DNA from: Cyanidioschyzon merolae
Lineage: Eukaryota
DNA: 64,000 nt
NCBI GenBank assembly: GCA_000091205.1
Contig: AP006490.2
Reading direction: 5' to 3' (one strand)
This document shows, piece after piece, positions 16,046 through 55,449 of the stretch (the first letter of the stretch is position 1; every line of letters starts with the position of its first letter). The notes beneath the pieces are model-generated. The model saw only the letters and a list, made by a program, of their open reading frames with translations, ran no database searches and was not told the DNA's origin. Both the position numbers and the translations under genes were made by a program.

Positions 16046-17270
16046 ATTGGCAAGAGATCCAAACATGAGCGTATACGCCCACGATAAGCCCTTGCACCCG
16101 TCGCATACGATCCTCCTGCCAGTTGATCCAGAGGTAAATCCGCATCTTCGAAGGATCAAGGCACGAGAGCGTATACACCCACGATAAGCCCTTGCAACCG
16201 TCGCATACGATCCTCCTGCCAGTTGATCCAGAGGTAAATCCGCATCTTCGAAGGATCAAGGCACGAGAGCGTATACGCCCACGATAAGCCATTGCACCCG
16301 TCGCATACGATCCTCCTGCCAGTTGATCCAGAGGTAAATCCGCATCTTCGAAGGATCAAGGCACGAGAGCGTATACGCCCACGATAAGCCATTGCAACCG
16401 TCGCATACGATGCTCCTACCAGTTGATCCAGAGGTAAATCCGCATCTTCGAAGGATCAAGGCACGAGAGCGTATACGCCCACGATAAGCCATTGCACCCG
16501 TCGCATACGATCCTCCTGCCAGTTGATCCAGAGGTAAATCCGCATCTTCGAAGGATCAAGGCACGAGAGCGTATACGCCCACGATAAGCCATTGCAACCG
16601 TCGCATACGATGCTCCTACCAGTTGATCCAGAGGTAAATCCGCATCTTCGAAGGATCAAGGCACGAGAGCGTATACGCCCACGATAAGCCATTGCACCCG
16701 TCGCATACGATGCTCCTACCAGTTGATCCAGAGGTAAATCCGCATCTTCGAAGGATCAAGGCACGAGAGCGTATACGCCCACGATAAGCCATTGCACCCG
16801 TCGCATACGATGCTCCTACCAGTTGATCCAGAGGTAAATCCGCATCTTCGAAGGATCAAGGCACGAGAGCGTATACGCCCACGATAAGCCATTGCAACCG
16901 TCGCATACGATGCTCCTGCCAGTTGATCCAGAGGTAAATCCGCATCTTCGAAGGATCAAGGCACGAGAGCGTATACGCCCACGATAAGCCATTGCACCCG
17001 TCGCATACGATGCTCCTACCAGTTGATCCAGAGGTAAATCCGCATCTTCGAAGGATCAAGGCACGAGAGCGTATACGCCCACGATAAGCCATTGCAACCG
17101 TCGCATACGATGCTCCTGCCAGTTGATCCAGAGGTAAATCCGCATCTTCGAAGGATCAAGGCACGAGAGCGTATACGCCCACGATAAGCCATTGCAACCG
17201 TCGCATACGATGCTCCTACCAGTTGATCCAGAGGTAAATCCGCATCTTCGAAGGATCAAGGCACGAGAGC
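16046..17270. repeat. tandem satellite, 100-bp unit x ~12; unit contains the perfect palindrome GCGTATACGC
   Basis: Unit gcgtatacgcccacgataagccattgcacccgtcgcatacgatcctcctgccagttgatccagaggtaaatccgcatcttcgaaggatcaaggcacgagag repeats with exact 100-bp phase. The artefactual minus-strand ORFs start at 100-bp multiples (16156, 16256, 16456, 16856, 17056). Copies differ by a few SNPs (c/t, a/c). The array ends 110 bp upstream of the Rad21 ATG. Confidence 0.95.
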
Positions 17271-17316
17271 GCGAAATCGCGCGCCTCTGCCGTTGATCCA
17301 GCGCGGGATTTCGCGC
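17269..17316. promoter_or_regulatory. inverted pair of E2F-type sites (GCGCGAAA ... TTTCGCGC) forming a GC-rich stem-loop, 65-112 bp upstream of the Rad21 ATG
   Basis: gcgcgaaatcgcgcgc (17269-17284) and gcgcgggatttcgcgcgc (17301-17318) are near-perfect reverse complements (about 15-bp stem, 16-nt loop ctctgccgttgatccag). Each arm carries the E2F consensus TTTSSCGC on one strand. Confidence 0.45.
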
Positions 17317-17380: not shown

Positions 17381-19702
17381 ATGTTTTATGCGACCAGTCT
17401 CATCAAACGGCGCAGTTCATTCGCCAAAGTTTGGATTGCAGCAACACTCGGGACCGAACGTCTTCCTCGGTCCTTTCTGATTCGTGTAAGCATTGCTCGT
17501 ATCTGCAGGGAACTGCTAGAGACGATCCATATCAATGCCCTGTCATTGCGACTGGAGGCACTGCTTCTGGTCGGCATTGCGAGAATCTATGAGCGACAGG
17601 TACTACTGTTTTGCACGCTTGCGGAAGATTGGTTTAGCCGGGAGCGGTTACAAGCACGCGTCTGTATACTGTCCACCGATGGACGACAGCACGACGATTC
17701 CGCAGCGGCAGGCGCAGAGGTGGCATCAGATGCTAGTGTCGCTACAGACGCGAATGCCGCGGACGCTGACCAGTTTGCTGCGAGGAATTCGCGAGATACG
17801 CGCTACCTGTTGCACCGGATCGGGGCCAGCAGGCGGAAGCAGCTCTGCGCGCGCTACGGCAGCATCACCTGGGGCCCAGACTCGCGATCCTTGGAGCCGG
17901 TGCCCCAGCAGACGAATGCACCACATACATCTGGTGAATATTTCGCCCATGTTGATGTGCTCTGGCATCTGTACGACTCGGAGCTTTACGGGCGTCACGA
18001 AAGAGCCGCGTTGCTCGCTGCACCCCAGCATGGGTTGGTGGCGACGGCGGCGGCAGCCATGCAACCCTATGAGCTTGCGGCATCTGTTCCCGAAGCCGCC
18101 ACCGAGCCGAGCGGGAGCGTCGAGCGCGCCTGGCCGCTCTCGCCGACACCGTTTCGTGTCAACGACCAGGACACCATTACATTGAGACAGCCGCGAATTG
18201 AGTTTTCGTCTGGCAGTCTGTCGATCATTCCCCAGCTCGATGAACGGGAGAGATTCCCCGAGGACCGCGATGCAAGCGGTGACTCGAGCATCGCTCCCCG
18301 GCGACTATTAGAGGCCCTCGATGCTGCTGCTCTGGCGCTGATCCCAGATGACACAAGTGCACAGACGAATATGGCTCCATTACCCAATCATGGCAATGAA
18401 ACGACTACTGGGCATGCTCAAGACGCACCGCAACGTCTTGTCCCGAATTCGGTGCCAACGAAGGAGCAGCAGGAACGTTTGGGATCGCAACGATCGCTTC
18501 GTCGTCGCAATGCATTGTCGAGCGTAGCCTGTTTGCAGCTTGATGAGCTGGATGCGCTCGCGCTACCACCGAGGCGATTGCAAATGAATATGCATCACAC
18601 ACGGGATCTCGTGCTCGCTTGCCAGCAATCAAATCGCAGCACCAACAGTGCCACTGCAGCGCAAGGTCCCTATCACCAGTCACCGGGCACGGAGGCAGGC
18701 AGTGCTCCAACGCAGTTGCAGCGTCTCACACAGTCTCTCGATGAGAACACATACGTAAGCAACTTGCTCGCGACAAAAGACTTCGTTTATCGATGTCTTA
18801 GCCAAGGTATCTTTGCGGTTGCGGTGGCACGCACCAGCCGCCTCAGAGCTATTTTCGAGGCAGTGCTCCGCCCACATTTCGAAGCACAGCCTCAAAGGCC
18901 AGCTACGGATCCAAAGGACATGCATGGCATGCCACATGCTGGGGAAGAGCGTCATCCGCCACCAGAATCTGAGGACAACGCTCAGCTGCGAGCATCATTG
19001 CCGCAGTCTGCGTCATTTTCTGGAAGCGCTCCGGAGCGATTACGCGGTTATGCTACGGCTGATGGATTCGAGGTGCCCTCACTGGATACAGACACACCAG
19101 GCGCCTACGCGGTTGCCCTTCGTGCAGCCTCATCCGAGCACTCTGCATCGCTGCCGAGAATGACGGTGCCTGATCTGAGGCTATCGGGTGTTCCTGCTGC
19201 GCGGTCTCCATTGGATAGCGGAGACCAATGCTCCCCAGGTTTAGCGATGTCAAGAATACACACAGAACTTATGCCTGTCATGGAGAATGCAGGGCAAGGC
19301 ACATCCCATGCCTCGATAGTGTCCATCGAGGGCGACCGCAGGCCAACCGTAACGCCTCAGTCGTATCGCGAAACACTCATTCGTTGCATCGAGAGGCAGC
19401 GCGCCGGAGACGCCAGCAGTCCAGGTTCATGTCGCTGGGTCAACTTTTCCGCCCTGCTCGGTGCTTTTGTTTCCGCGTTCGACGCCAAAAACGACACACC
19501 AAGCGCACAGAGCACAGAAAATCAAACAAAGCCGTATCCCGCGGCTTGGAGCCGGCCCTGCGCGGCGCTGCTGTTCGCCACCACTTTGAAGCTCGCGACC
19601 ACAGGACAGGTTACCGCCCACCAAACAACGCCGTATGGAAGCATTGCACTGCACTGGAACGGTGACAAGGACCCGGGCACCGCGCCGATTGCGGCGTCCT
19701 AG
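17381..19702 (+). CDS. RAD21: cohesin kleisin subunit Rad21/Scc1 (or meiotic Rec8), 773 aa
   Basis: ATG at 17381. N-terminal MFYATSLIKRRSSFAKVWIAATLG...LRLEALLLVGIARIYERQ matches the Rad21/Rec8 N-terminal domain (MFYxxxxLxKxGPLAxIWLAA...LLGVVRIY). The C-terminus AALLFATTLKLATTGQVTAHQTTPYGSIAL matches the Rad21 C-terminal winged-helix domain. Confidence 0.85.
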   Translation: MFYATSLIKRRSSFAKVWIAATLGTERLPRSFLIRVSIARICRELLETIHINALSLRLEALLLVGIARIYERQVLLFCTLAEDWFSRERLQARVCILSTDGRQHDDSAAAGAEVASDASVATDANAADADQFAARNSRDTRYLLHRIGASRRKQLCARYGSITWGPDSRSLEPVPQQTNAPHTSGEYFAHVDVLWHLYDSELYGRHERAALLAAPQHGLVATAAAAMQPYELAASVPEAATEPSGSVERAWPLSPTPFRVNDQDTITLRQPRIEFSSGSLSIIPQLDERERFPEDRDASGDSSIAPRRLLEALDAAALALIPDDTSAQTNMAPLPNHGNETTTGHAQDAPQRLVPNSVPTKEQQERLGSQRSLRRRNALSSVACLQLDELDALALPPRRLQMNMHHTRDLVLACQQSNRSTNSATAAQGPYHQSPGTEAGSAPTQLQRLTQSLDENTYVSNLLATKDFVYRCLSQGIFAVAVARTSRLRAIFEAVLRPHFEAQPQRPATDPKDMHGMPHAGEERHPPPESEDNAQLRASLPQSASFSGSAPERLRGYATADGFEVPSLDTDTPGAYAVALRAASSEHSASLPRMTVPDLRLSGVPAARSPLDSGDQCSPGLAMSRIHTELMPVMENAGQGTSHASIVSIEGDRRPTVTPQSYRETLIRCIERQRAGDASSPGSCRWVNFSALLGAFVSAFDAKNDTPSAQSTENQTKPYPAAWSRPCAALLFATTLKLATTGQVTAHQTTPYGSIALHWNGDKDPGTAPIAAS

Positions 19703-21648
19703 CGCATCCGAACGAGGCGAAACTTGAGCGGGTTCTCCGTCCTCTGAACCTGCACTTCACCGTTTTCTATCAAATGGAGCAAGATACCGTTGTAGTTCAC
19801 GTCAACAAATCGCAACGTAAACGGAAATTCCTCGTCTTGCTGCGGCTTTCGCCAGAACCACCGTCGAGTTCTCGGGCGCGTCACCCAGGATACCCGCGGC
19901 AAGGGGCTTGTGTTCGCGATCAGGCCAACTGCCTGACAACAGCTACGAAGGAAGCTTTCTTTACTCTTCCCAATATCGAAGACTCGGACGAACTTGGGCG
20001 CTGGTGGTTTCGCCTCGCTATAGATCGTGTCCTCTTCCATATGCAACCTATTTGTCGGGTACGGATAGCGTCAAACGCACGCTCTTACCGTCGAGTCTGT
20101 GATACAAAAGCCTGTCCTTCGAACACTGCAAGCAGCGCAGCAGCAGCGGCGAGCGCAGGGTGCAATCGCCACCTGGGCGACGACGGCGCCGCAGCGCGCT
20201 CGTGTCGAAGCACTCTGCAGTGTAGCTGCAGTAGCAGCACTGCAGCTTAGCAGCAGAGATTTTCTGGACAAAGGCGGAAATGTGCTGCCTGATTAAGTGA
20301 TGGACGCTGCTGACCTAATCGAGCTCGTTGTCGGATCCGAATACGGGGTAAGCTTCGACGCGCACGGTGAACTGCATTCTTTTGGGGTACATGCCTCGGG
20401 CGCAAGATCGTTGCATATAACGAGGGATGAGCGAGTATTTTACTGCTGTCGGCATGAAAGGAAGCGGCTGTCATTCCGTGCCAGACCTCCAGTGCGTGCA
20501 CCAGGTGTGCGGGTGTCCGGATCCGGCACTAGAACAAAAGCTGATGAGGGTCGCACACTCGCTTCCGCCCTAGCGCAGTGATTGAATGAATCTCAGCTGT
20601 TACGCACTTGCCACCTTCTGCTTCATCACCTATGCAGGCTAACGCCCGATACAATCAGCACAATCATGATGATGCTGATGGTGTTGGCAGTCCTGGTTCA
20701 AGAATGTGGCAGCGCAAAGATAATGCGCAGCGGGCTTTCGTCTCTATAAGCTGAACTTTTACGTGTACCTGATCCTGCTCACGAGCCGAATTTGTTGCTA
20801 TTTGCGCGGGCATGCCGCATCACCGTTCCACAGCCCAGGCGTTGCTCGTCCGTAACACTCCATCGTCATCCGAGTCGTAGCACAGCATCTCAACGTCTGC
20901 CGCGGGCTCCCAGTGTCCCGGTCAAACAGCTGTGTCTCTATCCAGAACTGGCTCTATTCAAGAGCGCAAGGATCGCGCCATATCTAAAAACTGTTCCATG
21001 TTCTTTCCAGGCAAACGGCGCCCAGGAAACGCTTTCCAGCCCTTGCCTTGGTCCATAACCCGTGCCTGCGTCGGATCCACAAAAGTCGGCCCCGACGGTA
21101 GGTTCGACTGCGTGGTTGCCGGACGCACCCGCACACCCGGCGCGGCAGCGCCACGTGCCGGCGTCCGCGACCCCGTTTTAGCTGCAGCAGAGGCTGCACT
21201 TCCGCCACTCTTCGCAGCTTTGCCCGAACCAAGACTTACCTTCGGAAGCGACGGAAGAGAGGGTAGTTTACCGGGCAGCTTAGGAAAACCAAGCTTTGGC
21301 AGCTTGATAGCGAACCCCTGGGCAGGAGCGTACCGGCCGCGCAACTGCAGGTCACCGGCGAGTGCCACACCAGCACCCAGAACAAGCGCTGCAGTATTCC
21401 AGTGCGCAGCACTCAAAGCACCTTGTGTGAAGACCGCTGCACTATTCATGACGTATATGAGCAAGAGTCGACGAAACCGCACCCTGTCGATACACAATCG
21501 TCGAAGAGCGCTGCGCGAAGTTCCTTAATGTAGCGATTGAGCTCGCGCTGAGCGCAGCGCTGCCGCCGGAGGTGCACGATCGCGGCGAGCTGCACGCGCT
21601 GTCAACATTCGATGCGGGTGACTGAGGCGCGTTCGCTGCGCGCTGAAC

Positions 21649-21784
21649 CGGACACGGCAGTAGGACGTAAGAAACGACCAGAATATCCGAGAAGAAGTAT
21701 AGGTAATGTAACTTGGAGGTAGGGTGTTTGATGAATACTTCACCGTGCACTGAAAAAAACACAAAAAGAAAGGTAAAAGCGCGC
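21649..21784 (+). repeat. dispersed about 138-bp element, copy B (about 85% identical to the reverse complement of 49070-49207)
   Basis: Hand alignment: the rc of this segment (gcgcgcttttacctttctttttgtgtttttttcagtgcacggtgaagtattcatcaaacaccc...ttacattacctatacttcttctcggatattctggtcgtttcttacgtcctactgccgtgtcc) aligns end-to-end with 49070-49207. Contains TATATA-like tataggtaatg. Lies 262 bp upstream of the IMPase ATG. Confidence 0.8.
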
Positions 21785-22045
21785 AGTCGGAGAATACTAG
21801 CCAAAGTAAACGTTCTGTCAATAAAAAAACTAGCCGCAGCGGTCTGCGCTGATCACACATTTCCTATTGCCGCTGGTGCCGCTGGTGCCGCTGCTGGTGC
21901 CGCGAGAAGATTGCGCTGTTGTCTCTATATCCTTGACCACGTTCTCGTTCGTAGAATCCGCTTACGCTTCGTGCTCCGGGGGTTCTCTCATCAGGTTTCA
22001 CTTGGAAAGCGACTCTGGGCGAATCGCTTCGGGAGCAGAGCCTGA

Positions 22046-23137
22046 ATGGGTATCACGGAACAGTTGGACGAGACGGTGTCGAAGACCGAGACAAGCGGCG
22101 TGCTTCCCTCGGTGAGCGCCGTTGCCGAACTCGTAGCCGGGTGGTTTGGTTTCGATGAGGTGCAGGATCAGGATCTATACAGCGAGACGATTGCGGCTGC
22201 TGTTGCGGTGGTCGCAGGAGGCCTGATCCTCAAAGCAGCGTGGAACCAGCTGCACTGTCCACAGGCGCTGTATGCGGATAGCAGTAGCGCGCCTGCTGGA
22301 AGCAAGTCTCAGGTGCTCGTTGCTACCAAGACGAGCTCTGCTGACATTGTCACCAGTGTAGATCGTCAGATAGAAAGTGAGATTCGACGGATCCTGGTAC
22401 CAGCGTTTCCAGGCTATGCCTTTATCGGGGAAGAGTCCGCGTACGTCTCCAGCACAGTGACGATGAACGCCGCAAAAACGGGTGCACCAGCGTGGATGGT
22501 TGACCCCCTGGATGGTACGACCAATTTCGTGTCAGGTGTACCCCATATTTGCACCTCTGTGGCGTTACTCCGGGAAAGACACGTAGTTCTCGGGGCCGTC
22601 TACAATCCGCTCACAGATGATTTATGGGTAGCAGTACGCAACCGTGGTGCCTTTCTCAACGGTAGGCGCTTGTATTGTCAGCGCCATGTTCCCCTGTCGG
22701 ATGCGGTTGTTGTGACAGAGTTTGGGTATGAGCGCAGCGCCGAGGGCGCCCGGCGTATGTGCGCTGTGGTTGAGCGGCTGCTCTGTGAGCGCGTTCGAGC
22801 GATTCGCATGCTCGGTTCGGGTATCTTGGATTTGCTGTTTACAGCGCAAGGTGTCGTACATGTGGTGTACGCGGGAATTGCCGGCGAGGGCTGGCAACCC
22901 TGGGACTACGCTGCTGGTGTTCTGATTGCCAAAGAGGCCGGCTGTGTTGTCGCGTCACTCGAGTCACCACCTGGGATGACTTGTGACGGCGAGTTCCTGT
23001 CGCGCTGTGCCCATGACTTTGACATTTTCGGCCAGAGCATCCTGTGCGCATCCAGCCGTGATCTCGCCCTCGAGGTGCACCACGTCATTCGGGAAGCCTG
23101 CGATCGCGTCTCAGAAAAGCATCCGGCCGATGCATGA
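22046..23137 (+). CDS. inositol monophosphatase (IMPase/SuhB family), 363 aa with about 90-aa N-terminal extension
   Basis: ATG at 22046. TSVDRQIESEIRRILVPAFPGYAFIGEES, WMVDPLDGTTNFVSGVPHICTSVAL (the DPLDGT metal-binding motif) and the C-terminal WDYAAG motif are classic IMPase signatures. Confidence 0.85.
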   Translation: MGITEQLDETVSKTETSGVLPSVSAVAELVAGWFGFDEVQDQDLYSETIAAAVAVVAGGLILKAAWNQLHCPQALYADSSSAPAGSKSQVLVATKTSSADIVTSVDRQIESEIRRILVPAFPGYAFIGEESAYVSSTVTMNAAKTGAPAWMVDPLDGTTNFVSGVPHICTSVALLRERHVVLGAVYNPLTDDLWVAVRNRGAFLNGRRLYCQRHVPLSDAVVVTEFGYERSAEGARRMCAVVERLLCERVRAIRMLGSGILDLLFTAQGVVHVVYAGIAGEGWQPWDYAAGVLIAKEAGCVVASLESPPGMTCDGEFLSRCAHDFDIFGQSILCASSRDLALEVHHVIREACDRVSEKHPADA

Positions 23138-45655: not shown

Positions 45656-48466
45656 TTAGATGCGAAAGATCAAGTTTGAGCGGTACATGATAAGGCCCAT
45701 TGCTTCCAGTGCCTGGAGGGCGCGCTCCACCTGTTCTCTTTCGATGGTTGGATCTGCGAGCTGTTCAACGAGCTGATCGAATGAGGTGGACTCGCTCCGC
45801 TCCGCTGATGTAATGGCTTCAATAGCTTGCTGGACGCGCTCGAGCAGAGCGTCATCGACGAGCGGTACGGTCATAGCGTCCGCCTGTTGGTTGGGCGGGG
45901 TCACTCGCTCCCCGGTCACGCGCAGGGCAGCTAAGTTTTCGGTAACTGGTCTTGTCTCCGGGCCGCTGGATATGCCGCCTGCCTGCGGCGACAAAGTCGA
46001 ATGTGCTGCAATGTCACTCGCCTGGGGCGTTACACTGCTGCCGAGCGCTGCACCTGATCGAACGCGTCGGCGAATGCGCTGCTGCGACGCTCTCGACGAA
46101 CGTGACGCTGCTTGCCGCCGTCCAGGGCTGTAGGATGGCTCGTCGCTCGCGGATGCATTGGATGCGGCCTCGGACTCATCGCCATCATCACCGTCGCCAT
46201 TATTGTCATCGTCGTCATCGAAAGCGAACGGATCCAAACGGCGACTCGCTGGCGCGGTTCGACGTCGCGTACCAGAGCGTTGCGGCAATGGCGCTGCAGC
46301 CGATGCCGACACCGGACTCGTATTCGCGTCAGGTGAGCGCACGGGGGCAGCTCTGGCGACGTCGTGTTCGCGGTCGATTTGAGTCTCATGGTAAAGGGCG
46401 AAATTCAGCAGATCAAAAGCAGCACGCGCATCAGTGATGTCCACTGTCAGGCTGAGACGCAACTTGGCGTGCGCAGTTGCGAGGCGAATCATTGTCTCCA
46501 GCTGCCGAGCGGTAATGGGTAGCGTGCGAGCGTCATCTTTGGCTCGCAAGTCACGGTATCGCGACGCAATGTACGCCGCTGCCTCTTCAGTAAGCTGCGG
46601 ACTCAGCTCACGTGCGTAGTGGATGTATTTCTGTAAGAACGGCACGGAGAGGATGCGATGCGCGGCAGCACCCTGGATAGCTTCGTTGGCCTGGTGCGAT
46701 ACGAACAATGGTGCCGTCATGGGATCATCGCTTGCCCTAGCAGCACCAGCGGCAGCAGCAGCATCCGATTCGAAGCCCTGATCGTCTGTTGACTCCACGG
46801 TGGTCGCTTCCGCTGGGGGCGCGTTATTTTCAGGCGTCGCTCGCTCGTCGAGTGGCGTGTCCACGTCTGCGCCGGCGTATCCCGCCAGTTCCGCGCGACC
46901 TGCCCTGTCGGGGTTCCGATACTGATGGACGCGCAGCACATGCCTTGCAATGAGCTCGTCTCTTTCGCGGGAGATAGTGTCAAGAACGATGAACACCAAA
47001 TCGAAACGCGAGAGCAACGAATCGGGCAGGGCAATGTTTTCTGCGGGTTTGCGGCGTCGATCATAGGATCCGTAGATCGGATTCGCCGCGGCAAGTACGG
47101 AACAGCGAGCATTCAAAGTAGTATGGATGCCGGCCTTGGCGATCGTTACCGTCTGCTGCTCCATAACTTCATGGATTGCAACTCGGTCCGCATCGCTCAT
47201 CTTGTCGAACTCGTCGATGCAGACGACACCCCGATCAGCGAGTACCATTGCGCCGGCCTCGAGATGGCGCTCCCCCGTGTCTGGGTCTGTGGTGACGGCA
47301 GCGGTGAGACCGACCCCCGAGGAGCCCCGGCCGGTAGTGGATATGGCGGACGGGGCCACGTGAAGTACGAAGCGCAGCATTTGTGACTTGGCTGTGGACG
47401 GGTCTCCCACGAGCAGGATATTGATGTCGCCACGGAGGTGGGTGCCATTGCTGAGGTTCTTTTCAGCGCCCCCTACGAGCTGCAGTAGTACCGCTTTCTT
47501 AATGAAATAGTGGCCACAAATGGATGGAGCAATCGATGCAGTCAGCAACTCGATACCACCCGGCGTGGAGGCTACCTCACGAATGTTCGCAAGGTCGCGT
47601 TCAGAAAACTTGAGGCGATGCTGTGTGTCGCTCAACGGAATACAATGATTGGCCACGATCTTGGTCGCAAAGTACGTCGTCGTCTTGCCTCCCAGAGCGC
47701 GATATGTGCCGATAATACGGACGCGCATGCCGGGTTTGCAAACATCGACCAAATCTGCTTCAAAAACAATGTCAACGGTGCGCGGCAACTGGCCCGGTGG
47801 TGTACGTTCGGGCATCTCTTGCAGGGTCGCCGTCTGAAAGTCGCGGTATGCCGATAACCCGAATTCCGTTTCCATGGGGTTGCCGTCTTCGTCACGGGTG
47901 GGATAGATGGCTGCCCCGAGCCCTCGGTTCTGGGCGACATCCAGCGAGATACCATCGCGGTAGACGCGGTGAACTATTTCGTTCTTCGCGGGGATGAAGT
48001 GCACAGACTCTACGACTTTGGGTCGAACAGCAGACACGCGAGTAATTATACCGTCAACGCATACCATCGAGTTCAGCATCGAGGCACGCAGTGAGCGCGG
48101 CGTCGCGTGCAGCGCCCCGAAAGCACCCTCGAACCCAACATGGAGGCGCTGACGTTCCCGCCCAGCAGCACCAGCAGCCGCGAGTGCTGTATTCCACTGC
48201 GCGATATAGTCTGTAAGGACTTCCTCAAATATTGGTAGAAATCGTAGCGGATTTTCAAACAGAAGCTTTGCTATTGTGGGTTCCTCGCGACGTAGGAGGT
48301 CCAGTGAGACGATAAGGCGTCGCTGACGTCCCCGTCGCAGCGCCTCAAGTTGTTGCTGTAGAGGTTCCCACACAGGAGCCTCTGACTCGAACAAGTCCCT
48401 GATCTTGGAACGAAAGTCTTGATCCTGATCAGGGGCAGTAAACAGTGATTGAAAAGCCGTCTCCAT
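45656..48466 (-). CDS. MCM3: DNA replication licensing factor MCM3, about 936 aa
   Basis: Collinear with human MCM3: RLIVSLDLLRREE vs RLIVNVNDLRRKN; VCVDGIITRVSAVRPKVVESVHF vs [23 protein letters not shown]; Walker A GDPSTAKSQ; arginine finger SRFDL; IDEFDKMSDADR; acidic C-terminal tail. Track start 48640 is GTG; the ATG at 48466 (ccATGg, METAFQSLF...) aligns with the MCM3 N-terminus. Upstream in-frame ATGs at 48619, 48601, 48547 cannot be excluded. Confidence 0.85.
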   Translation of the reverse strand: METAFQSLFTAPDQDQDFRSKIRDLFESEAPVWEPLQQQLEALRRGRQRRLIVSLDLLRREEPTIAKLLFENPLRFLPIFEEVLTDYIAQWNTALAAAGAAGRERQRLHVGFEGAFGALHATPRSLRASMLNSMVCVDGIITRVSAVRPKVVESVHFIPAKNEIVHRVYRDGISLDVAQNRGLGAAIYPTRDEDGNPMETEFGLSAYRDFQTATLQEMPERTPPGQLPRTVDIVFEADLVDVCKPGMRVRIIGTYRALGGKTTTYFATKIVANHCIPLSDTQHRLKFSERDLANIREVASTPGGIELLTASIAPSICGHYFIKKAVLLQLVGGAEKNLSNGTHLRGDINILLVGDPSTAKSQMLRFVLHVAPSAISTTGRGSSGVGLTAAVTTDPDTGERHLEAGAMVLADRGVVCIDEFDKMSDADRVAIHEVMEQQTVTIAKAGIHTTLNARCSVLAAANPIYGSYDRRRKPAENIALPDSLLSRFDLVFIVLDTISRERDELIARHVLRVHQYRNPDRAGRAELAGYAGADVDTPLDERATPENNAPPAEATTVESTDDQGFESDAAAAAGAARASDDPMTAPLFVSHQANEAIQGAAAHRILSVPFLQKYIHYARELSPQLTEEAAAYIASRYRDLRAKDDARTLPITARQLETMIRLATAHAKLRLSLTVDITDARAAFDLLNFALYHETQIDREHDVARAAPVRSPDANTSPVSASAAAPLPQRSGTRRRTAPASRRLDPFAFDDDDDNNGDGDDGDESEAASNASASDEPSYSPGRRQAASRSSRASQQRIRRRVRSGAALGSSVTPQASDIAAHSTLSPQAGGISSGPETRPVTENLAALRVTGERVTPPNQQADAMTVPLVDDALLERVQQAIEAITSAERSESTSFDQLVEQLADPTIEREQVERALQALEAMGLIMYRSNLIFRI

Positions 48467-48563
48467 GGTACCTAAACGCGAAGCAGCAGCGAAAAGCGCA
48501 CGCTGTTGTTCAGTGGGTCGATGCGCACGCAGCCTGCGTGCACGCATGGGTGCATCGCAGCGA

Positions 48564-48612
48564 TTTCCCGCGCTCGCGCGTCCACGGGTACCTGCTTGCA
48601 TTCCGCGCGAAA
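48564..48612. promoter_or_regulatory. two E2F-type motifs (TTTCCCGCGC and GCGCGAAA) 98-146 bp upstream of the MCM3 ATG
   Basis: gatttcccgcgc at 48563-48573 and ccgcgcgaaaat at 48603-48614, read directly. Both match TTTSSCGC on one strand or the other. They fall in the Arg-rich non-ATG N-terminal extension of the track ORF, supporting 48466 as the true start. Confidence 0.4.
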
Positions 48613-49069
48613 ATCGCATCGTGCCTTTCGATTTTGCCACAGGTGCGATTTCCCTTCGTTCGACAGAGCGTTGACACTGGATCAGGCCTCTCCGATAGCG
48701 TGCTTGCTATCAGCGATCAAGCGCGAATGGAGCGATGCGCTGCCTGTTCGGGCGCTGACGAGTCATGCGCTTGTCGCGGGCGTCTCCAAGCTTCGTTCAC
48801 GGATCCGTCACAGATGGTGTCTTAGGGCAGCGCGTAGCTGCCTCTAGAACGCTGTCCTCGACGTGTGCACTCCTGGAATGTGCGTATAACCACAACTCGA
48901 GCAGCGCGACGGGCGCATCCTGCTTGGATCTTGTTTAGACCCGCAGGGTCAGGCATCCGCACGGAACGATCGAGCATCCTGCAGATACGTTCCATCGATG
49001 CCATGCGCAGCTGCACACGACTTCTCTTCATTGACAAAACGTTTCCATAGGCCAGCGTTCTCCGATTAT

Positions 49070-49207
49070 GCGCATTTTTCTTTTCTTTCTCTTTTGTTTT
49101 TTTTTTCAGTGCGAGGTGGAGTATCCATCAAACCCCCGATTTCCATGTTACATTACCTATATATCATCTCGGATATTTTGGTCGTTTCGTACGTCCTATG
49201 GTGTGCC
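49070..49207 (+). repeat. dispersed about 138-bp element, copy A (inverted relative to copy B at 21649-21784)
   Basis: gcgcatttttcttttctttctcttttgttttttttttcagtgcgaggtggagtatccatcaaaccccc...ttacattacctatatatcatctcggatattttggtcgtttcgtacgtcctatggtgtgcc. The shared artefactual peptides in the ORF track (21442-21804 minus vs 48998-49366 plus: ...HYLYFFSDILVVSYVL vs ...HYLYIISDILVVSYVL) reflect the DNA identity. Confidence 0.8.
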
Positions 49208-50044
49208 GCACCCGCCGAAAGCGACAACAATGGCGCCTATAGCGCCGGTGCGGTCGCCGTATGGAGACAGAACGGCGTTAGCAGCACACGATGCGGGCGT
49301 GCAGGCGATGCGCTCGCGGTGACATGCACGATCATCGGGACGCCTTTACACACCGGTGTGCTTTGATTTGCTCTCCTCCAGTCGTGCACATCTGTGTACA
49401 TAGAGCGGCTGCTGCCTCGGGAAAAACGCCCATATAGGGTCTAACATGAGCGTTTGTGGTGTGGGATGCGAGCGTTCGCTCGGGGAGCGCGTGCGTCGCG
49501 TCACCCGATGTGGTAGATGCATACGCTGCGAGCACGACACCTGAACAACTCTGCCAGCGGTGCGCTTTACGCATCACAAAGTCACTTTAACCATTGCGGT
49601 CTCAGTGAATGGGCCCTAAAAGCATAACAGAGTCTTGGTTGGTGCGTCGGAAGCACGCTTTCCAGGTATTGTCACATGCGTAAAGATCAAAGAATGGGGC
49701 ACTGAACCGCTCACCCTCTTCCTGTCTCTCTCCTTTCTTCGGACTTTTCGTAGATGTACCTACTCGACATGACAAGTGTATCAGCAAGGACTTTTGGATG
49801 CATACGTTCTGTTCCGAGCTTCGGTCGTCGATTTGGATCGTCCGCTGCCACGTACGGCTCCTGGAGTTTGTCACATTATCGGGATCGAGATGATACGCGA
49901 CGCCGTCGTACAACGGTTCGTAAAATAACCGATATCATTACATAATGCAGACGTACAAGGCTTCGTGCTTCTCCTTTCGTTACGTGATGCACGCTCAAAT
50001 CATGTACGCATCAAGCTTTCGATCTTTCTCTTTGAAGGCACGCT

Positions 50045-50977
50045 GTGGGGACACAACTTCTCGCTGGTGGATTGACGAGTGGAAAGACTCAACGTGTTTC
50101 CGTGGCGACTTGTTCAGAAGCTCGTGCCGCACTTTTACTCGAACTGTCAAGCCAGATCATCGATTCCGTTCGAAAGACGAGTCCTCCACTCTGTGTGGCC
50201 ATCCGCCACACTGGACTCGACACTAGCATCATACCCCCAGGGGAAAGATTCACATATGCCCTCACCTTCTCTTTTTGGATAGAAGACCGTGTTGCGTTCG
50301 AGATTCATTCACCGCAGCGATCGCTTTCATCGGAAAGGTCGTCATCGGTTTGCACGAGTGAAACAGATATACACTGGAATTTCTCGACTTGTTCTGCAGC
50401 GAAGTCCTTGGGCGGAGAAATCTGCATGGTATCCCTGAGCCATGGCACCGCTCACCACCACCGGCACCTCAAGGCTTCGATGACGCGCAGGCGAATGTGC
50501 CACGACTCGGCCAACATCCTGGAAGGCCGGAAAGAGTTCTTCATGGGCGGCGCTTCGTCGAAGCCTATGGGCTTGGATGATAGCCTTATGGCAATTAGGC
50601 TCCATCAAATACTACGCAAAGTTCCAGATGCAGATATGAGAATGGAGCTGCTTCCGCTTCTACGTTCCCCGCTTACGAAAGCGAGGACCCTGTCGCATCT
50701 GGAATGCTGTTCCAGAGCCCCGAACGGAAGCGTGTTTCCCCATTTCCTAATGCTCTTTTCGGTCGCTCGTAACAGCACGTCTTTATGGGGATGTTCTCGC
50801 TTCCTTATGGAGCTGGACGCCCGCGCACAAGCGCCGCAGCTGCGTCCCATGGAGAATCAGGGCATCGACGAACCAGAAAGGCTGATCACAGTTATGGACT
50901 TCACGAAGTGGTCGATGCATCTTTCGCCAGAACATGCAAAATTACTCATGAACCATAGGTTGAACAAAAAAGGATAA
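50045..50977 (+). CDS. hypothetical protein; start uncertain (ATG candidates 50426 and 50543)
   Basis: A 310-codon open frame whose track start (50045) is GTG. In-frame ATGs at 50426 (MVSLSHG) and 50543 (MGGASSKPMG, N-myristoylation-like). No domain recognised. Confidence 0.3.
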   Translation: MGTQLLAGGLTSGKTQRVSVATCSEARAALLLELSSQIIDSVRKTSPPLCVAIRHTGLDTSIIPPGERFTYALTFSFWIEDRVAFEIHSPQRSLSSERSSSVCTSETDIHWNFSTCSAAKSLGGEICMVSLSHGTAHHHRHLKASMTRRRMCHDSANILEGRKEFFMGGASSKPMGLDDSLMAIRLHQILRKVPDADMRMELLPLLRSPLTKARTLSHLECCSRAPNGSVFPHFLMLFSVARNSTSLWGCSRFLMELDARAQAPQLRPMENQGIDEPERLITVMDFTKWSMHLSPEHAKLLMNHRLNKKG

Positions 50978-52721: not shown

Positions 52722-52973
52722 CTAGTCTGGAGAAAAATTATCTATGGGATCCGCGTACGCATTCCAGCAGGCAGCATCTGGGGTCCCCGCTCCCGAAGCA
52801 GGCACCAGTTCGGTCACAAAACTTGGTATAGCGGCGTCGTGCTTTCTGACGGCTTCGCGCCTCTCAGAAACCTGTCCCGACGATGCCTTCGCCCAAGCGG
52901 TTTCCGCAGCGCGTCCATGCCGAAGAAGCGCTCCAGCGTTCTCAGCGTTCATGTCGCTGGTTGGGGTCCTGAT

Positions 52974-53007
<34 letters not shown>

Positions 53008-54914
53008 CGAGCATCCCAGCTATGGCCCAAGCGATCGCAGCTGCCACTGCCACTGCTGGTGTTGTTGCTGTTGTTCCGGAATAGCTGCTGGTGCCCTGTT
53101 GCCGATGACGTACCATGCTCGAGGCACACAAGCCGTCTTTGACGATTCAGATTGAACCTGTTGCGATTCCTGTCATCACTGGACAAGGATACGCTTTCAT
53201 GAAGATCCGGCAATCGGGCTCCCGCGCCGAGCTCACCATCAGCATCAGAATCAGAGTCGCTGCACAGGCTGGATGCATTCGTCTCAGACCAGCTGGTATC
53301 GGATTCGAAAGAAGCGCTGTCGAAGGTACTCGAGCAAGCGCCTTCTGCGCTCGAGTCTGTCATCTGTGCAAATGCGGCATCAAACAGCTCATCTTCGTTG
53401 TATGTAGGACGCTGTCGCCTTCCTGTCCGGGCGCTACGATGCGGCATCTCTGTCGCCGACGTCGTTATCGCTGCCTCCTGGTCCAAGCACGACTCCCGGG
53501 CAGCCTGTTTCGAGATGCGCACTTCTCGTCGCACCGCAGCCAAATAGCCATGCTCGAGCTCAGCAATGACCGAATCCTGGATGCAACTCCACAACCGGCG
53601 ATTGCGAGAGGACATGGCATCGCCACCGAGCTCCTGGAAGAGACGCTCCATGGCCTGCACTCTGTCTGCATAATCCCGAACAACGACCTCTATCTGAGGA
53701 GGTACGCTGCATTGTGCTGCGGCGCCGCCGTCCAGACGCTCCCCGGTCAGAGAAGCGCTACCATTCGAATGTGCCTCAGAGACACCGCCGCCATAACGGA
53801 GGCGATATATTCGGAAGCAGCCGCACGCCGCAGCCGCTCTCAGGCCTCCGGGAACCCAGTAGCGCCAACCGTAATCGTCTTCACCAAAAGCATCAATCCG
53901 AGTGGCACCATCCCCACGTCGATACACCTGGTCACAGGAAGGCGCTTTCACTGACTTGGAATCGTCCATCGCTGCTTCCCAATCGCTCACAGAGGGTTTT
54001 CTGGTGGAATCGAACCCAGTTCGTAATGCTTTCGCTTTCGAGATGCAGCCATCCGTTCGTGAGCGGCCTGCCGCTGCGGTAGTTGATCGACGAGTGTGAA
54101 ACGGCGCTTGTCGCTGCTCCTGTTGTTTTCGGGCTCGTCGATGTCGCCTTGTGGGCTGTCCAAGGCGCTGGCTGCATTCCTGCTCCTGTTTCGCCATTTC
54201 CCAGATCACGCGGCGCAGACTCTCGTTCGTTTCCGAGACAACCTCACATAGCGCTAAGAGAATGACCACACGCATCCGCGGGTGGAGCATTTCATACCGA
54301 CATCGATCGAGGATGGACGCTCCGTCCTGATCATAAAGGCTGCAACCCGGGTCGCTGCCAGCAGCTGGCCCGCTCAGGTCGTAGAGTTCAGGCCGCGTAC
54401 GTAGTTCCGCTGCGAGCAATTCTATCCACCCGTCTTTCCCGTAGGCATGTATTGCGTCGACCTTGCGCACATGCAGGCAGTTGAGCAACCCGGCATGTAC
54501 GCGCGAGAGCAGTAGCTCTTGGCTTGTTCCTTCCTGGTGCGAGGTCGCAGTCGACGACTGAGCAGTTGTGCTTGCGTGAGCGTCATCAGCTGGGGGTCGT
54601 TCGCGCAAGCCGTGAACGATGTCCGCTTCCAAGCGCCCCGGATCGATCTGGGGCACAAGCGCATCTGTGGGCTTTTTCGGTCGTCCTGCTCGAAAGTACG
54701 TCCGGATTTCCTCATTGATGAAGCCTTGAAGAGCAACGAGAAACTGCAGCACGCTCACGAACTCCGGCATACAGCGTACCTGCGCCACAGCCTTTTCCTT
54801 ATCCTCGTGATCGGCGAGAATTCTATTATCCGAGGTGTAGTCATATACGACACCGTTCACACAGTCCACAGAGGAACACGCGACAGCTTCTGGTGCAGCA
54901 CAGTGCCCGTTCAT
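52722..54914 (-). CDS. hypothetical protein, about 730 aa, with a poly-Asp tract
   Basis: Track start 54965 is GTG; first ATG at 54914 (MNGHCAAPEAV...). Conserved-looking helical N-terminal region (VSVLQFLVALQGFINEEIRTYF...LLNCLHVRKVDAIHAY...RVVILLALCEVVSETNESLRRVIW). (ATC)n at 52974-53007 encodes DDDDDDDDDDDD. No confident family. Confidence 0.5.
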
Positions 54915-55449
54915 GAGATCGCACCGGCCGTCTGTGGCTGTGGAGCCGGTACCGCACCACCACACTGCAGTCGGTTCAACGTCCAGCTCTTTCGGAAAGC
55001 TAGGCCCCGCTAAAGCAAGCCTGAAGCGTCACCGGAGGCACTGCGTCCTTGCGCACACCCTCTACCTCTGTTTTCAAGCTGCCTGTGCAGGCACAACTCG
55101 GAACGAGTCTCCGTTCGCGCCAAAGCGTCCTCCTGTAGCCACCTGCAATGATTGTGAGGCGCGCGTGTGTGCCAACCGGAGCGCTGGGCAGAAGCATATG
55201 CGCTCGACGTCACTGGCGCTATCCTCGATGATGCATTGCCTGGTTCAGTAGCCGTCCTAGTCTGATGCTGTCGCAGTCCCAACTGGACCAATTGAGCACC
55301 ATGCAAGGCGGGGAGGCTGGTCCGTTTGCCAGCGTAACTCGGCGCTGGTCGTTGGCACTCGTTTATCTGGACGCCTAGCTGGCAGGCACGGGTAGGGTAC
55401 TCGAGTGCCGAGTATCCATGCGATGCATTTCCACGGGGCAGTGCAACTC

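Follow-up and report, generated by a model that had tools for sequence, protein, structure and literature searches.

The analyzed window, i.e., the whole stretch of 64,000 nucleotides, belongs to chromosome 8 of Cyanidioschyzon merolae 10D; it is gene-dense, has a G+C content of about 55%, and contains no visible introns. The MCM3 gene (CMH264C, chromosome 8; PMC2646357) is located on the minus strand, and its identity was established from the Pfam domains MCM_N, MCM_OB, MCM, and MCM_lid, while the ORF 17381..19702 on the plus strand was identified as Rad21 by the domains Rad21_Rec8_N and Rad21_Rec8. The neighboring genes encoding cytochrome-b5 reductase, pseudouridine synthase, inositol monophosphatase, squalene epoxidase, a WD-repeat protein, a ribose methyltransferase, TAF1, and cyclophilin agreed with the published order, and many of the genes in the window are annotated as encoding a hypothetical protein. 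One gene with this annotation, CMH254C, is expected by gene order between the genes for Rad21 and inositol monophosphatase (19702-22046) and had a very high mRNA level (about 6,000 TPM) in a published control data set. Rfam and tRNA scans of positions 48300-50200 revealed no RNA gene in the intergenic region upstream of MCM3, the sole Rfam match there being a sub-threshold one to ftsZ-DE (E = 0.19). The following features were considered:

45656..48466, minus strand: MCM3 coding sequence (CMH264C), 936 aa and stop; ATG at 48466-48464 in the context ACCATGG
48467..48640, minus strand: open frame upstream of the MCM3 start, a mechanical ORF extension with in-frame ATGs at 48619, 48601, and 48547
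48472..48555, minus strand: out-of-frame upstream ORF with its ATG at -89, 27 codons, its TAG stopping 6 nt short of the MCM3 ATG
48563..48573, plus strand: proximal E2F-type site, ATTTCCCGCGC on the plus strand, GCGCGGGAAAT in gene orientation, antisense to MCM3
48605..48613, minus strand: distal E2F-type site, TTTTCGCGC, sense to MCM3, with a match to TTTCGCGC at 48612-48605 starting at -146
48626..48635, minus strand: third promoter block, conserved in part: AAAATCGAAA in C. merolae, AGAATCGGAA in two sister species (L002 and L003, see below); alignment columns A132-A141 invariant
17269..17316, plus strand: Rad21 E2F-type pair, GCGCGAAA at 17269-17276 (antisense) and TTTCGCGC at 17309-17316 (sense)

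Both motifs upstream of MCM3 match the E2F consensus TTTSSCGC (GCGSSAAA), as cited in PMC4862756. The distal match reads GCGCGAAA on the plus strand (48605-48612), and the proximal one reads TTTCCCGC at 48564-48571 on the plus strand, i.e., GCGGGAAA at 48571-48564 in gene orientation, starting at -105; in a longer reading, the proximal site is TTTCCCGCGC (48564-48573) on the plus strand and GCGCGGGAAA in gene orientation. The gene-strand (minus) sequence spanning both motifs is ...CACGATGCGATTTTCGCGCGGAATGCAAGCAGGTACCCGTGGACGCGCGAGCGCGGGAAATCGCTGCG.... The sites are located 105 and 146 bp 5' of the MCM3 start codon; the divergent neighboring ORF at 50045 is over 1.4 kb away. Re-scanning of the window returned exactly the motif coordinates given in an earlier note on this DNA (48564-48573 and 48605-48612), and the span of 98-146 bp before the ATG at 48466 that it had reported was also correct. 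The mechanical ORF 45656..48640 begins with a GTG at 48640 and contains both motifs; thus, the earlier placement of the sites inside the ORF extension was accurate, whereas the description of this extension as non-ATG-initiated applies only to the frame as drawn by the ORF finder, since three in-frame ATGs lie within it. The third promoter block lies just upstream of the distal site and was assigned to no known motif.

In the window as a whole, the TTTSSCGC consensus was not enriched (15 matches versus 13.8 expected), and 11 of the 15 matches were scattered singletons located mostly within ORFs. Meanwhile, pairs of matches at most 60 bp apart were found only twice in the 64 kb, namely, at 17269/17309 upstream of Rad21 and at 48564/48605 upstream of MCM3, so that the exhaustive scan agreed with the suggestion of the earlier note that such pairs precede these two genes alone. 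In 1000 dinucleotide-preserving shuffles of the window, 0.18 close pairs were expected versus the two observed, and 1.7% of the shuffles gave at least two (P(>=2) = 0.017); it should be noted that this statistic, as well as the choice of "canonical targets", is partly post hoc, and conservation of the sites was therefore given more weight. The longer form GATTT(T)CSCGC was common to all four paired sites and was found in none of the 11 singletons, and GATTTCSCGC had three matches in the window versus 0.59 expected, counts that are likewise partly post hoc. One single site, TTTGGCGC at 55117-55124, is located in the sense orientation about 152 bp upstream of a 747-aa ORF (52722..54965, minus strand), which has no Pfam match and is among the hypothetical-protein genes; the E2F-type site there may mark a possible target or be a chance match.

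The Rad21 sites are 40 bp apart and lie 112 and 72 bp ahead of the Rad21 ATG. Relative to the gene, their order is antisense then sense, whereas that at MCM3 is sense then antisense. Two related strains, L005 and L006, carry the Rad21 pair unchanged. The search with the full-length Rad21 protein returned the C. merolae cluster alone, the search with its N-terminal domain gave zero matches, and the metagenome scan revealed two near-identical strains and nothing more distant. A tandem repeat with a 100-bp unit (12.1 copies, 98% matches) occupies positions 16067-17271, its end falling exactly on the distal E2F-type site of Rad21. The final unit of this array contains GAGAGCGCGAAATCGCGCGCC, and the other units contain GAGAGCGTATACGCCC, while in strain L005 (positions 2287-2296) the penultimate unit likewise has the GCGCGAAATCGCGC form. 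According to these differences between units in 10D and L005, the array looks like a repeated duplication of a promoter-distal segment, in which the E2F-type site was gained or lost between units.

Conservation of the MCM3 sites was assessed in the orthologous loci of a related C. merolae-like strain (L001), Cyanidiococcus yangmingshanensis (L002, 70% protein identity), a third cyanidiophyte, taken from a JGI metagenome (L003, 69%), a more distant cyanidiophyte (L004, 56%), an additional relative (L011), and Porphyridium purpureum (L012). In the alignment of the promoter, taken as the 300 bp before the start codon, columns were on average 62% identical, with the near-identical strain L001 included. 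Within this diverged promoter, TTCGCGC and GCGGGAAAT were invariant and collinear across C. merolae, L002, and L003 and formed the main conserved islands. The distal core TTCGCGC (48611-48605 in C. merolae) was located at -145, -130, and -127 in C. merolae, L002, and L003, respectively, and GCGGGAAAT, located at -105, -94, and -90, was the only 9-mer that the three species shared within the 400 bp upstream of MCM3; no further 8-mer or 9-mer was common to all three of these regions (null expectation for shared 8-mers, 0.02). The distal site of both sister species was the one-mismatch variant GTTCGCGC, and the GA 5' flank of GATTTCSCGC was not kept in them. The distance between the sites was 41, 36, and 37 bp in the three species, which ruled out helical phasing of the two MCM3 sites as a conserved feature.

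More distant red algae had similar motifs upstream of their MCM3 genes. The L004 locus contained GCGCGAAA, GGCGGGAA, and GCGGGAAA, all within 80 bp; the L011 locus contained GCGGGAAA and TTGGCGC; and the P. purpureum locus contained two palindromic double E2F sites, TTTGGCGCGAAA and TTTGGCGCGAA(A), 30 bp apart, as well as GCGGGAA. Between the P. purpureum palindromes, which lie about 360 and 330 bp ahead of MCM3, and the start codon there are long GA and GT microsatellites. In the five pooled loci other than those of C. merolae, 8 of the 18 TTTSSCGC matches fell within the 400 bp upstream of MCM3, which account for 5.3% of the sequence (binomial P = 1.8e-6, for loci that are not all independent lineages). 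Among C. merolae strains, the distal site was unchanged (L001 and L007) and the proximal site was invariant in all strains, with variable flanking bases. Strain L009 carries a variant (F3C) that turns the distal site into GTTCGCGC; it lies 8 nt from the contig end and was not relied on. In the environmental strain L007, six substitutions were concentrated within 14 nt, from -50 to -37 (48516-48503), in a region otherwise identical between strains. The near-site ATTCGCGC around 48727 (-261 from the MCM3 ATG) in C. merolae 10D was present as ATTTGCGC in L001 and L007 and was absent from the sister species; consequently, it is probably not functional.

Taken from the sequence, these data support the presence of E2F-type promoter elements at MCM3. 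The most probable explanation, to which we assign a probability of about 0.8, is that the two motifs are E2F-DP sites, probably also serving an E2F7/8-like relative, in a TATA-less, non-coding proximal promoter of an MCM3 gene that starts at 48466. Chance matches in CpG-rich promoter DNA, devoid of regulatory function, would be in keeping with the G+C-rich nature of the short motif in a genome of about 55% G+C, with its chance-level frequency, and with the scatter of the 11 singletons, but this reading is very unlikely, given that the two close pairs each accompany a replication or cohesion gene, that exactly the motif bases were kept in three species while the surrounding DNA diverged, and that more distant red algae likewise have the motif upstream of MCM3. 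Functional sites may also be read mainly by another factor, i.e., by the E2F7/8-like repressor CMT433C alone or by an unrelated protein of the CGCG-box type. Atypical E2Fs recognize the same consensus as typical ones, which counts in favor of such a factor, as do the CGCG cores of both sites. The E2F7/8-clade gene of C. merolae, moreover, peaks at the day-night transition (PMC11231608). Nevertheless, the proximal block of L003, AAGCGGGAAAT, retains the E2F core while lacking a CGCG core, and in C. merolae it is the typical E2F that has been demonstrated to activate S-phase genes at G1/S (PMC11376382); moreover, the main explanation already includes joint use of the sites by both classes of E2F, which is not a true alternative to it. 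Reading chiefly by another factor was considered improbable. It is likewise unlikely, though somewhat less so, that the pair itself is the functional unit, with two oppositely oriented GATTT(T)CSCGC elements about 40 bp apart being the signature of a direct E2F regulon. In the window, the paired GATTT(T)CSCGC form marks MCM3 and Rad21 alone, and if it were such a signature, the entire G1/S regulon of a minimal eukaryote with 4,775 genes would be readable from sequence; however, neither the spacing (41, 36, and 37 bp) nor the orientation is fixed, so the pairing may have no special role and is not claimed here as a unit.

The remaining alternative is that the motifs are coding, in which case MCM3 would start at ATG 48619, 48601, or 48547, the product, extended by an Arg-rich N-terminal segment, would be 963-987 aa long, and protein constraint would account for the conservation. 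The frame is indeed open, with three in-frame ATGs and with no stop or frameshift in the extension of any strain, and a 987-aa version is present in MetaClust and among the predictions of metagenome gene callers. These prokaryote-style callers pick the longest ORF, and the 987-aa models are artefacts. The reference annotation starts at 48466; the ATG at this position opens METAFQSLF, and the 936-aa product is identical to BAM79908.1 / XP_005536194.1 of C. merolae 10D. The earlier note had proposed an alignment with orthologues to confirm METAFQSLF as the start, and in this alignment the Cyanidiococcus and L003 proteins begin with MEPAFQSLF, placed against METAFQSLF. The extension peptide had no counterpart in the orthologues, as upstream frames, when translated, showed no similarity from one species to the next, and in L002 and L003 there was no in-frame ATG within 260 nt upstream, every ATG there being out of frame. 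Among environmental strains, 6 of the 51 residues of the extension were variable versus 6 of the 936 residues of the protein (Fisher P = 1e-5), and 9-12 of its 153 nucleotides were variable versus 15 of 2811 in the coding sequence (P = 1.4e-6 for 9/153). Thus, polymorphism in the extension was about 10-20 times denser than in the coding sequence and also exceeded that in the upstream intergenic DNA (24 of 1047 nucleotides). The ACCATGG context was found at ATG 48466 alone. Translation of the motifs is the least probable of the alternatives.

According to the orthologues, the polymorphism, and the annotation, ATG 48466, which is already the reference start, is supported as the MCM3 start codon, and positions 48467..48640 are, as judged by the sequence comparison, non-coding 5' flank or 5' UTR rather than protein. 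The downstream ATG favored by the earlier note thus stands, but the reasoning from the motifs to this ATG carries less weight than the note gave it. E2F sites can occur in 5' UTRs, and for this reason the motifs alone are no argument for a start codon. No usable data on transcription starts in C. merolae were found in a literature search, and a look for transcript-derived contigs did not find the exact 936-aa reference protein on record as a called gene. The 936-aa call on the 3.9-kb contig L010 was rejected as a transcript: the contig is genomic and breaks 2 nt before the ATG. Since in-frame ATGs lie upstream of METAFQSLF, scanning initiation at this sequence implies that transcription should start downstream of 48547, tens of bases past the proximal site. 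The transcription start is, therefore, most likely located between the proximal site and the ATG (approximately 48546-48467), giving a leader without upstream ATGs; the 27-codon upstream ORF is relevant only to a transcript that begins upstream of 48555. An alternative upstream start that would yield, under some conditions, the 987-aa MCM3 with an Arg-rich, presequence-like extension is less likely than the pair acting as a functional unit.

The preferred reading of the motifs as E2F-DP sites agrees with the cell-cycle machinery described for this alga. C. merolae has a typical E2F (CMT067C), an E2F7/8-like protein (CMT433C), RB (CMT038C), and the DP genes CML181C, CMT601C, and CML315C (PMC11231608, PMC11376382), and its RB-E2F-DP pathway is functional (PMC11376382, PMC8504449): RB restrains E2F-DP in G1, and RB phosphorylation frees S-phase genes for transcription (PMC8504449, PMC6606799). 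Inducible degradation, or knockdown, of E2F delayed G1/S and lowered the expression of 201 genes, including those of PCNA and RNR (PMC11376382), and mcm3/CMH264C is among the S-phase-induced genes (PMC2646357). In the rapamycin control of the E2F-knockdown study, CMH264C was unchanged, as a control should be (PMC11376382). We infer E2F binding at the two MCM3 motifs and E2F dependence of CMH264C. Under this scheme, RB (CMT038C) on E2F (CMT067C)-DP at the MCM3 sites would keep the gene low in G1, CDKA-cyclin would phosphorylate RB at the evening G1/S transition, and E2F-DP would then drive an S-phase burst of MCM3 mRNA. Since both the pathway and the S-phase induction of mcm3 have already been published, the MCM3 sites would be one more ordinary case of a known element.

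Paired or inverted E2F sites are known from the adenovirus E2 early promoter, DHFR (TTTCGCGCCAAA), and the mammalian MCM5 and MCM6 promoters, and the classic animal and viral targets are TATA-less S-phase genes subject to RB-dependent repression and E2F activation. The C. merolae MCM3 promoter resembles these targets in having TTTSSCGC-type sites in opposite orientations, but differs from them in spacing, which is 36-41 bp in C. merolae and its sister species, whereas the classic sites overlap or are about 25 bp apart; nor are the sites held on one helix face between cyanidiophyte species. The palindromic TTTGGCGCGAAA sites of Porphyridium MCM3 are DHFR-like. The closest parallel is the MCM3 promoter of Arabidopsis thaliana, which contains two functional E2F sites according to Stevens et al. 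2002, as cited in PMC5464667. By this account, the two promoters belong to orthologous licensing genes, each with a pair of E2F consensus sites in its proximal 5' region, the Arabidopsis gene being activated at G1/S; unlike the C. merolae sites, which are known from sequence alone, the Arabidopsis sites were assigned distinct roles by experiment. The plant E2F consensus variants are TTTCCCGCC, TCCCGCC, and TSSCGSS, and the cyanidiophyte cores TTCGCGC and TTTCCCGC fall within these definitions (PMC5464667). In L002 and L003, the distal site, with its single mismatch, is still accommodated by the shorter plant cores, while the extra 5' GA of the four paired C. merolae sites (GATTTCSCGC) is outside the published consensus.

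Thus, the reference start codon of CMH264C was confirmed, and a concrete, conserved candidate pair of E2F sites is now available in a genetically tractable alga, in which promoter editing by homologous recombination is routine. The practical value of this result is modest, as the arrangement is an expected, textbook-like one and would not surprise specialists in the cell cycle. With sites conserved from Cyanidiophyceae to Porphyridium, red algae join animals and plants as lineages in which MCM3 is found under E2F-type sites, and the red-algal MCM3 sites fit an ancient link between E2F and replication licensing.
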